From a virus: a DNA stretch of 39,532 nucleotides. Positions 12,655 to 13,744 of the stretch are shown here, one piece after another. The notes below the pieces were generated by a model. It did no database searches, had not been told where the DNA came from, and saw only the letters and a program-made list of their open reading frames with translations. The stretch lies in the UHGV virus genome UHGV-1361184, one strand, 5' to 3'. How positions within the stretch are numbered: the stretch's first letter is position 1; each line of letters begins with the position of its first letter. The position numbers and the translations under genes were made by a program.

Positions 12655-12834
12655 ATGAAAAAAGAAGACCGTGGTTTTATCTCTGTTACTAACTCAATTT
12701 CAGAAGTTAAAAAACTCTTTGTGGAAAATGAAATCCCGCAAGAAGATGAGGTTCTTGAACTGGTGGTCGTCAAAAGCGAAACTACCAATGACTCATGTGC
12801 ATTAGTGCTTAAATTGCGATCAGTTCAAAAATAA
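12655..12834 (+). CDS. Small ORF (59 aa) upstream of the serine protease gene
   Basis: [59 protein letters not shown]; GAGG 11 nt upstream; AT-rich; below the ORF-track cutoff. Confidence 0.35.
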
Positions 12835-12946
12835 GACGAACCGATTGATGCATTGAAAATTTTGCGTGTGAATTGATGTGTCTCATCAATTATTCTGGTG
12901 GATGAACTCATTATGATTTTTCACTCACCGGTATCGGAGCAAATCG

Positions 12947-13687
12947 ATGCATCAAACTTTAGCCAACGCAACGTTTCAGGTCATTGCAGGTGATTCTCGT
13001 GGTAGTGGGTTCAGCTTTATGCGAGAAGATCTGGTCGTAACCAATTTTCATGTTGTCGCCACCTGTTGTGACTTACAGAGCATGCGTCAAATCAATAATG
13101 TCACCCTTCAAACTGAAGCTAATGAGCATATTGGTGCTCAAATATTGCATGTTGATGGTAGTAACGACTTTGCTATCATGCAATTGCAATCCCCCCTTCC
13201 TGGCGGAAGAACAGTCCTTCAACCATCTGCTGGGTTTGCTCCATCCAGGGGCAGAAAAGTAATTTTTGCAGGATACCCGCATGGGATACCTCTGTTACTA
13301 ACAAGTGAGGCAATTATTTCAGCACCGATGGAGCATGGCCGATTTACGCTTGATGGAATGGTTAATGGGGGGAACTCAGGAGGACCTATTATTGATCGAG
13401 ATTCGGGAGAGTTAGTAGGTATCGTCACCCAGCGTAGATATATAATGGGCGATCAGGCTGATGCTTTCAGCCAAGAAATAGCCCAACTGCGACAATATCT
13501 TTCTTCAGCAAGTCTGCATGGAAGTGTTGAGATCATGGGTGTTAATTTCGGGCAAATGGCGGACATGTTTGGTAGATCGCTACAGATTGTTTCGGACATG
13601 ATGTCGCTGAATGCTAACTCCGGAATTGGTATTGGATTTTCAATCCAGCCCATCGTTGATGTGATCACATCTTTCCCTACGAAATAA
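12947..13687 (+). CDS. Cytoplasmic trypsin-like (S1/HtrA-type) serine protease with uncharacterised C-terminal region
   Basis: Catalytic-triad motifs in order: TNFHVV (His), DFAIMQL (Asp), GNSGGPI (Ser); no signal peptide; AT-rich. Confidence 0.75.
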   Translation: MHQTLANATFQVIAGDSRGSGFSFMREDLVVTNFHVVATCCDLQSMRQINNVTLQTEANEHIGAQILHVDGSNDFAIMQLQSPLPGGRTVLQPSAGFAPSRGRKVIFAGYPHGIPLLLTSEAIISAPMEHGRFTLDGMVNGGNSGGPIIDRDSGELVGIVTQRRYIMGDQADAFSQEIAQLRQYLSSASLHGSVEIMGVNFGQMADMFGRSLQIVSDMMSLNANSGIGIGFSIQPIVDVITSFPTK

Positions 13688-13720
13688 ACATTCGTTGTAT
13701 AAGATTTTATACATGATATG

Positions 13721-13744
13721 GCCACGCATATGTGTGGCTTTTTA
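13721..13744 (+). terminator. Intrinsic terminator after protease gene
   Basis: GCCAC...GTGGC hairpin followed by T5-6. Confidence 0.6.

Follow-up and report, generated by a model that had tools for sequence, protein, structure and literature searches.

The virus genome UHGV-1361184 (39,532 nucleotides (nt); "the window" is used here for the whole of this stretch) carries, between its lysis genes and its packaging genes, a two-gene cassette: a small open reading frame (ORF) of 59 amino acids and, 3' of it, a gene for a 246-amino-acid HtrA-like serine protease that has no PDZ domain. The cassette is genuine, well delimited and apparently undescribed, and it is distinguished by a translational lock at the start of the protease gene, a two-helix hairpin at the position of the L2 loop of the protease, and an orphan partner protein. 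The reading favoured here, with a probability of about 0.4, is that the protease is an abortive infection (Abi) or exclusion effector in phage-host conflict, with the hairpin as its regulatory or sensing element. A function in conflict is the best reading because distant homologs of the protease are found in accessory and defence-island neighbourhoods and because the translation start is so heavily locked.

The protease

It had been claimed in the initial annotation that the protease has an ordered catalytic triad within the motifs TNFHVV, DFAIMQL and GNSGGPI, and all three motifs are present. There are about 310 homologs of approximately 245 amino acids that align with the protein over its full length, and in an alignment of 64 of these Asp74, Ser144 and GNSGGP are invariant and His35 is kept in at least 90%. 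A second invariant motif, NAN-GIGIGF, is at residues 222-230. The protease matches Pfam Trypsin_2 with an E-value of 3.6e-20, the NCBIfam models for HtrA, DegP and MarP all match below their thresholds, and a profile search against the PDB matches HtrA at 4e-14.

The AlphaFold2 model of the protease (predicted local distance difference test score (pLDDT) 87, predicted template modelling score (pTM) 0.80) has the double barrel of the chymotrypsin fold. The strand after the catalytic serine leads into a pair of long helices (residues 168-191 and 201-222), which are an insertion in the fold. Beyond the helices there is the last barrel strand (227-232) and then a C-terminal helix, with the protein ending 20 residues past this last strand. 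The C-terminal 80 or so amino acids, described earlier as unassignable, can thus be assigned to a helical hairpin at the L2-loop position plus the strand and helix with which the chymotrypsin fold normally ends. In Foldseek searches the best matches to the model are DegS-deltaPDZ and other HtrA protease domains (E ~2e-12), and the viral structure libraries return only generic trypsin-like matches. With structure prediction, Foldseek and profile searches run on both proteins of the cassette, this one is of the HtrA type and the small one has no fold match. On the predicted model, the protease is a clan PA, S1C/HtrA-like chymotrypsin-fold peptidase, and its conserved triad suggests that it is catalytically competent.

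As was also noted from the start, there is no signal peptide; the N-terminus, MHQTLANATFQV, is made up of a helix (residues 2-8) and the first strand of the fold (9-14), without a hydrophobic segment. No match to a PDZ domain was found with the Pfam and NCBIfam profiles. The lack of a PDZ domain, signal peptide or membrane segment would make this a cytoplasmic protease.

Across the cassette family, identity to the window copy is 77-100% in the N-terminal 30 residues, where nonsynonymous divergence (dN) is 0.075, and 55-93% in the catalytic core (residues 31-165, dN 0.11). It is down to 22% in the hairpin (residues 166-225), with the core still at about 60%; dN in the hairpin is 0.43, 4 times that of the core, and the ratio of nonsynonymous to synonymous divergence (dN/dS) is 0.23 in the hairpin versus 0.12 in the core. 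The hairpin has also been swapped independently of the core, identities being 68% for the core and 85% for the hairpin at locus L112, and 79% and 58%, respectively, at locus L004. Divergence and independent exchange together would suggest that the hairpin is the least constrained, modular part of the protease.

Two short motifs, MHQ (residues 1-3, positions 12947-12955) and TQRR (residues 161-164, positions 13427-13438), are nearly invariant family-wide, including in the members outside phages. TQRR follows the strand of the catalytic serine, and the arginine pair with which the L2 position opens may have a part in forming the S1 pocket.

A predicted translational lock on the protease gene

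The conserved leader between the two genes is predicted to fold as a closed multibranch RNA with a minimum free energy of -37.4 kcal/mol (z=-2.98). Only 1 of 200 shuffled sequences is as stable, and the opposite strand has a z-score of -1.5. The start codon of the protease lies within the 3' arm of the closing stem and its Shine-Dalgarno sequence is predicted to be paired as well (Table 1). By partition function in this window, the mean unpaired probability from the Shine-Dalgarno sequence to the AUG is 0.13 for the protease; the 30 control genes have a median of 0.44 and go no lower than 0.26. The start of the small ORF is ordinary in this respect, with an unpaired probability of 0.39.

Other variants of the cassette fold alike, with z-scores of -4.2 to -4.7 in four of them. 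In the prophages at L022, L024 and L026, which do not have the small ORF, an unrelated leader (GGUGUAUGUU and following, with an inner hairpin over the Shine-Dalgarno sequence) pairs with the same AUGCAUC start region, and at L126 a third, different leader sequence pairs with the start region of the protease. Of 17 other phage-borne variants tested, 13 share with the window copy a start less accessible than that of every control gene, a level that is reached by three unrelated leaders. The homologs outside phages are not locked (0.18-0.80). Such a lock would reflect selection for very low or conditional synthesis of the protease, as is the case for harmful gene products.

A FourU-type RNA thermometer acting on the Shine-Dalgarno sequence was considered and set aside, the predicted accessibility staying at 0.12-0.16 from 25 to 50 C. 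A search against Rfam gave no known RNA family, the only hit being a chance match to a snoRNA (E=0.88).

Homologs of the protease outside phages

Full-length members of the family that carry the hairpin are found sparsely in Salinisphaera, Photobacterium, Arcobacteraceae, Bacteroides, Limibacterium, Lysinibacillus, Defluviitaleaceae, Anaerolineae, and others. They stand there as single genes. A homolog in Bacteroides (L030) is 13 bp downstream of a Type I restriction-modification (R-M) operon, another (L031) adjoins a KAP/STAND-type NTPase gene, a third (L033) is in an integrase island beside rnr, and a fourth (L009) is beside HNH_5 and transposase remnants, with further homologs beside DUF2971 (L014) and a serine recombinase (L016). 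Such a pattern is that of an accessory gene spread by horizontal transfer, frequently in surroundings of the defence type. The Photobacterium homolog at L014 (6001-6819, P0116) has an extra C-terminal SEC-C zinc-binding motif, and the island that includes DUF2971 is otherwise one of hypothetical genes.

The PADLOC models that match the protease are only the protease domains of defence systems, and the matches are weak: RT-Protease_XI at 2.5e-14, PDC-M35A at 1e-5 and LmuA at 1.6e-3. Membership of retron type XI was rejected, since the match covers only profile positions 339-503, the C-terminal protease part, and the protein is a single domain of 246 amino acids with no reverse transcriptase (RT) and a negative Rfam result. 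Likewise, the cassette does not belong to the Lamassu-protease, trypsin-MBL or Avs-protease systems, there being no metallo-beta-lactamase (MBL) nuclease, LmuB, helicase or STAND partner nearby, nor to the gasdermin/CARD-associated proteases, no such partner being nearby either.

The small ORF

The small ORF has a dN/dS of 0.17 in frame, compared with 0.85 and 1.08 in the shifted frames, and its length is constant at 59 amino acids; the in-frame value indicates that it is a real gene under purifying selection. Its homologs form 61 clusters, all in Enterobacterales. A deep profile search of 1.84 billion representatives finds only 8 clusters at 50% identity, all belonging to its own orphan family, and there is no match to the protein in Pfam, PHROG, PADLOC, NCBIfam or the PDB. 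The AlphaFold2 model, of moderate confidence, is one helix with a long beta-hairpin (pLDDT 70), for which Foldseek finds no fold neighbour (best E-value 1.9). An AbrB/MazE-like antitoxin fold had been suspected from the sequence pattern and was rejected on these same Pfam, NCBIfam, PDB and Foldseek results.

At 26 of the 27 loci with the small ORF, the most divergent homologs included, the protease gene is 80-113 nt downstream of it. The other locus is L124 (4001-4620), which has lost the protease at a breakpoint and where the homology to the cassette stops ~15 nt past the stop codon of the small ORF and is followed by a DUF1441 small terminase gene. There are, in turn, no small-ORF homologs with the protease at L009-L018, L022-L027 and L029-L035, which include both prophages and chromosomes. 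Nor do the two proteins co-vary across 18 cassettes (Mantel r=0.02, p=0.32). At L108 the small ORF is 100% and the protease 53% identical to the window copies, with the reverse mismatch at L121 (69% and 95%). The lack of co-variation and the protease-only loci would suggest that the small protein is a persistent but dispensable, lineage-specific accessory and that it is no cognate antitoxin.

Boundaries and distribution of the cassette

The window is a P22-like (Lederbergvirus) phage or prophage of E. coli, with IME10 and HZ41 as the nearest phages. Both ORFs that had been placed between the lysis cassette and the packaging genes are found there (Table 1), downstream of and co-oriented with the holin, endolysin and Rz/Rz1 genes, and 3' of the cassette terminator there is a DUF2560/orf80-like gene and then the gene for the small terminase subunit at 14123. 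The AT-rich composition described for the region is also evident, the GC content being 0.39-0.43 over 12400-13999 and ~0.50 in both flanks. The extent first given to the element, 12655-13744, captures a two-gene insert, but the real unit is larger. In phage E212, positions 12454 and 13772 of the window are joined with ~10 bp between them, as seen by blastn, which puts the insert at ~12455-13771.

Against 50,697 phage records, megablast matches cover only the flanks of the cassette, with the cassette itself unmatched, and tblastn of the protease against sequenced phages finds no close homolog. Among 5,426 complete E. coli genomes, 29 have the cassette, each time in one copy and on the chromosome. 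At all eight of the E. coli loci inspected it is flanked by the lysis genes on one side and the gene for the small terminase subunit on the other, in the same orientation. The neighbours of the cassette are spanins, Rha, DUF2560 and terminase. These loci have unrelated packaging and head modules, which are P22-like (L001, L003), lambda-like with nohD/gpA and an S49 protease (L002, L007), or of the PBSX-TerL/DUF1073 type (L004, L006, L008). Proteases of 41-54% identity fill the same slot in prophages of Enterobacter, Cronobacter and Pantoea, which have HK97-like heads and ClpP proteases, such that at least four unrelated packaging modules (P22-like, lambda-like, PBSX-TerL, and HK97-like) accompany the cassette. 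The occupation of the same slot by these more distant proteases in other genera indicates a long-standing tie to the lysis-terminase junction.

An intrinsic terminator follows the protease, as had been predicted, and in other variants the terminators at this place have at least six unrelated stems. That a terminator is kept with differing stems suggests that the transcription unit is not read only by antiterminated polymerase. The identification of the cassette as a moron was thus upheld: it is missing from the closest phages, deviates in composition, has a terminator, and recurs at the same slot in varied prophages. The conclusion that it is a mobile accessory unit, carried by temperate phages of enterobacteria at the 3' end of their lysis cassettes, is well supported.

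The 5' ~170 nt of the insert contain the C-terminal part of a foreign o-spanin, downstream of the phage's own Rz/Rz1. This o-spanin gene is intact in the leaders at L006 and L109-L120, where its stop codon is 31-45 nt before the small ORF. The fossil spanin piece indicates that recombination brought the cassette in from a phage whose lysis system was a different one, together with a fragment of its former neighbour.

Table 1. Positions of the cassette, its parts and the adjoining lysis genes in the window
Feature	Positions	Strand	Remarks
Whole cassette insert, ~1.3 kb	12455..13771	+	Relative to phage E212; blastn against loci L019-L021; low GC
o-spanin gene 3' fossil, different lysis-cassette type	12507..12623	+	Compared with the L022 ORF at 5409-5639 (lipobox) and the L006/L109-L120 leaders
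Small ORF, 59 amino acids, acidic orphan protein	12655..12834	+	dN/dS 0.17; AlphaFold2 model, short helix and long beta-hairpin
Conserved 112-nt intergenic leader	12835..12946	+	Predicted closed multibranch RNA
Closing stem, 5' arm UUGAUGCAUUGA	12845..12856	+	Predicted to pair with 12944-12955
Inner hairpin/palindrome AATTGATG-N5-CATCAATT	12871..12891	+	Conserved; arm changes in variants G.U-compatible but few
Shine-Dalgarno GGAG of the protease	12936..12939	+	Predicted pairing with the U-run at 12860-12864
Closing stem, 3' arm UCGAUGCAUCAA	12944..12955	+	Contains the protease start codon, 12947-12949; predicted AUG unpaired probability 0.00
PDZ-less HtrA-like S1 serine protease, 246 amino acids	12947..13687	+	Catalytic codons His35 13049-13051, Asp74 13166-13168, Ser144 13376-13378
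Two-helix hairpin insert, residues 166-225, HtrA L2-loop position	13442..13621	+	AlphaFold2 model; fastest-evolving part of the protease
Intrinsic terminator, 8-bp G+C-rich stem and T-run	13720..13747 (13720-13739 before the T-run)	+	Terminator search; unrelated stems in other variants
Holin	10879-11202
Endolysin	11186-11662
Rz/Rz1	11659-12096

Other features of the lysis-terminase interval

At L005 (3452-6755, E. coli PSS-11) two IS3-family copies flank the small ORF, one of which splits the protease gene, making this a naturally inactivated cassette. At the ~12259/12309 junction of the window, other prophages (L002, L003, L007, at ~5135-5677 or 4135-4677) have an inserted gene for a Rha-family regulator, which makes the lysis-terminase interval a hot spot with several sites at which accessory genes have entered (Rha, DUF1398, YlcI/YnfO, DUF6953, YodC). 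In phage Huey (PQ850609.1, 37739-38575), a related phage, the lysis-terminase slot has a gene annotated by its depositor as "anti-CRISPR protein". A second, unrelated protease moron, an SDH-family Clp-fold serine proteinase, is between the Q antiterminator and holin genes at L002 of E. coli EC11 (2231-3226, minus strand).

Positions 12237-12454, immediately 5' of the insert, comprise ~220 nt without a convincing ORF that are nonetheless 96-98% identical in P22, IME10 and E212. This is the orf25 region of P22; it is negative in Rfam and may be a conserved regulatory or small RNA region. An imperfect hairpin, CATTACAAAGCC-N10-14-GGCTTGATAATG, without a T-run, is present at 12249-12288 and again at 13747-13790, and also at L022 (~5845-5885) and L124 (~4395-4437). 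It recurs at the lysis-terminase module junctions of unrelated lambdoid prophages and might be an RNA element or serve as a linker in recombination.

Possible functions of the cassette

If the protease is an Abi or exclusion effector, the effector would be a cytoplasmic HtrA/DegS-type enzyme with a variable two-helix hairpin in place of the L2 activation loop. It would be kept scarce or latent, with its ribosome-binding site and AUG buried in stable mRNA structure, and would probably need an allosteric trigger, as other HtrA proteases do. An infection signal would then activate the enzyme, the most plausible signal being a protein that binds to the hairpin, and the burst would be aborted through cleavage of essential proteins of the host or the phage. 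The 59-amino-acid protein would be a lineage-specific accessory, modulating the protease or its expression or serving as an adaptor. Within this scheme we infer the latency and potential toxicity of the protease, what triggers it and what it cleaves, its defence phenotype, and when it is expressed. More tentatively, and with the odds against it, the PDZ-less protease of ~245 amino acids with its L2 hairpin could be an unrecognised and widely transferred single-chain immune module, sensor and effector in one, that has been captured by temperate enterobacterial phages, joined to their lysis cassette and put under an RNA lock at the start codon, with an orphan 59-amino-acid co-factor, and that would be a new type of prophage-encoded Abi. 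A toxin/immunity or Abi module had been proposed in the initial annotation. Conflict is still the best reading of its function, but the part of the proposal that concerns a cognate partner is not supported, given the lack of co-variation, the frequency with which the protease is found alone, and the absence of an antitoxin or inhibitor fold.

Several observations weigh against a conflict effector. No sigma-70-like promoter was detected upstream of either gene by scan, or by eye in the conserved leader and intergenic region, and the position of the small ORF 31-45 nt past the o-spanin stop codon in many carriers favours late co-transcription over expression in the lysogen. For the lock, the folding z-score is non-significant in 5 of 14 variants and the support from stem covariation is weak, with 12 compatible and 8 disruptive one-sided changes; covariation cannot confirm the stems because the invariant MHQ codons leave their 3' arm no freedom to change. 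Positive selection on the hairpin was considered but is not shown, its dN/dS exceeding 1 nowhere and dS being saturated, so that no arms race is demonstrated. At L011 and L029 the homologs of the protease are among core genes, PADLOC has no complete known defence system that is matched by the cassette, and no description of the cassette was found in the literature by accession, name or concept. The papers on the prophage defences Tai, HepS and svsR proved to be unrelated to it.

The cassette might instead be the end of a Q-dependent late lysis transcript, with the protease an offensive protein, for counter-defence or host takeover, that is expressed late and degrades a host factor in lytic growth; among its targets might be defence proteins that detect late structural proteins, or host proteins in whose absence burst or lysis improves. 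This is the main rival and a serious one, though less probable than the favoured reading. In its favour, the cassette is co-oriented with and appended to the lysis cassette in every phage context, the small ORF is close to the o-spanin gene in many carriers, and no promoter was detected. It is also in keeping with the annotated anti-CRISPR gene in the same slot of phage Huey, and the tight translational lock would suit a protein needed in small, timed amounts. It does not, however, explain why a terminator is maintained, this being unnecessary for a purely antiterminated transcript, nor the presence of full-length homologs outside phages, beside R-M and NTPase genes or as single chromosomal genes, and most of the closely related phages do well without the cassette.

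That the two genes are a type II-like toxin-antitoxin or addiction pair, in which the small protein is an antitoxin inhibiting a protease toxin so that the prophage is stabilised, or Abi ensues upon degradation of the antitoxin, is improbable. The gene order would fit, since the small ORF comes first, at a fixed spacing of ~112 nt, in 26 of its 27 loci, as would the conserved palindrome between the genes. There is also a precedent of a serine-protease toxin with a partner in IetAS, as cited in PMC13069673. The palindrome, however, fits an RNA hairpin at least as well as an operator, and the partners do not co-vary. Many prophages and chromosomes have the protease without the small ORF, with the small ORF alone once (L124), and the small protein has no antitoxin-like fold or family (ribbon-helix-helix, AbrB, helix-turn-helix, or Phd).

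Its position right after the spanin genes, invariable across at least four types of lysis cassette, might point to an accessory in lysis timing, whose substrate would be a part of the holin, antiholin or spanin apparatus that lies in the cytoplasm, or else a regulator of that apparatus. It is very doubtful that this is the role of the protease, as this type of protease accompanies unrelated sets of holins, endolysins and spanins, leaving it no constant substrate. Homologs outside phages exist, and most relatives of this phage are without the cassette. A virion or prohead maturation protease, or another structural role, has nothing in its favour beyond the presence of a protease near packaging genes and is scarcely credible: the gene is outside the head operon, upstream of terminase, no Pfam or PHROG match to the prohead-protease families (S49, ClpP-like S14, S78/U35, S80) was found, and the co-occurrence of the protease with P22-type heads, which need no protease, as well as with heads that have their own S49 or ClpP, excludes head maturation in practice, bearing out what was argued at the outset from the head type and the position of the gene.

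Were the protease a defence or counter-defence effector, it would be among the smallest protease-based conflict modules known. It would also provide a model for an HtrA-type core that is regulated without a PDZ domain, through an inserted hairpin and an mRNA lock, and the lysis-terminase junction of lambdoid and P22-like phages would join the known hot spots for immune cargo. Even without a phenotype, this is a well-documented case of modular moron exchange, in which a spanin fossil marks the origin of the cassette.

Comparison with known systems

The closest likeness in fold is to HtrA, DegS and DegP (S1C; DegS-deltaPDZ 2qf0 and 3lgv, M. tuberculosis HtrA1 7w25), with which the cassette protease shares the chymotrypsin fold, the triad, GNSGGP and the terminal GIGF strand. 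It differs from them in having no PDZ domain, signal peptide or anchor, in its length of 246 amino acids, and in the ~55-amino-acid hairpin that replaces the L2 loop, and identity is ~17-25%. It is also encoded on phages and islands and is not a housekeeping enzyme of envelope stress. Membership of the HtrA family proper was therefore rejected, two of its defining features, the PDZ domains and the envelope location, being missing.

Among the morons of lambdoid phages are bor and lom of lambda, and those of HK97 and HK022 were reportedly defined by Hendrix and colleagues. The cassette is like these in its insertion between genes that are adjacent in relatives, its deviant composition, its terminator, and its place in the hot spot after the lysis genes. 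Unlike them, it has no recognisable promoter, it encodes a cytoplasmic enzyme and not an envelope protein, and it has an elaborate predicted translational lock.

Lit, of the defective lambdoid prophage e14, causes abortive infection of T4 by cleaving EF-Tu. It has been listed among the systems that sense capsids (PMC11364771). The proposed likeness, a functional analogy only, is that of a prophage-encoded cytoplasmic protease that is latent until triggered by a protein of the infecting phage. Lit is a zinc metalloprotease (peptidase U49) that is not homologous to the cassette protease, occupies another position in the genome, and has neither a small partner nor a hairpin.

IetAS (Gao_Iet) combines a serine-protease toxin with an AAA-ATPase antitoxin (cited in PMC13069673) and resembles the cassette as a two-gene module in which a serine protease is the harmful component; it has a defence phenotype. 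IetS is a subtilisin-like enzyme paired with a large ATPase, homology to the cassette is lacking, and the regulatory logic differs.

Trypsin-like domains have been described in defence as trypsin-MBL modules in Hachiman and Avs2 (bioRxiv 10.1101/2025.09.03.673762; Tuck et al., cited in PMC13069673) and as gasdermin/CARD-associated proteases (PMC10312443). What these, together with retron XI and LmuA, have in common with the cassette protease is a cytoplasmic Trypsin_2-type domain, which in those systems serves immunity as effector or activator. There the protease is fused to or encoded beside an RT, SMC/LmuB, HamAB, a STAND NTPase, an MBL nuclease or a gasdermin, whereas the cassette protease stands alone or with its 59-amino-acid orphan.

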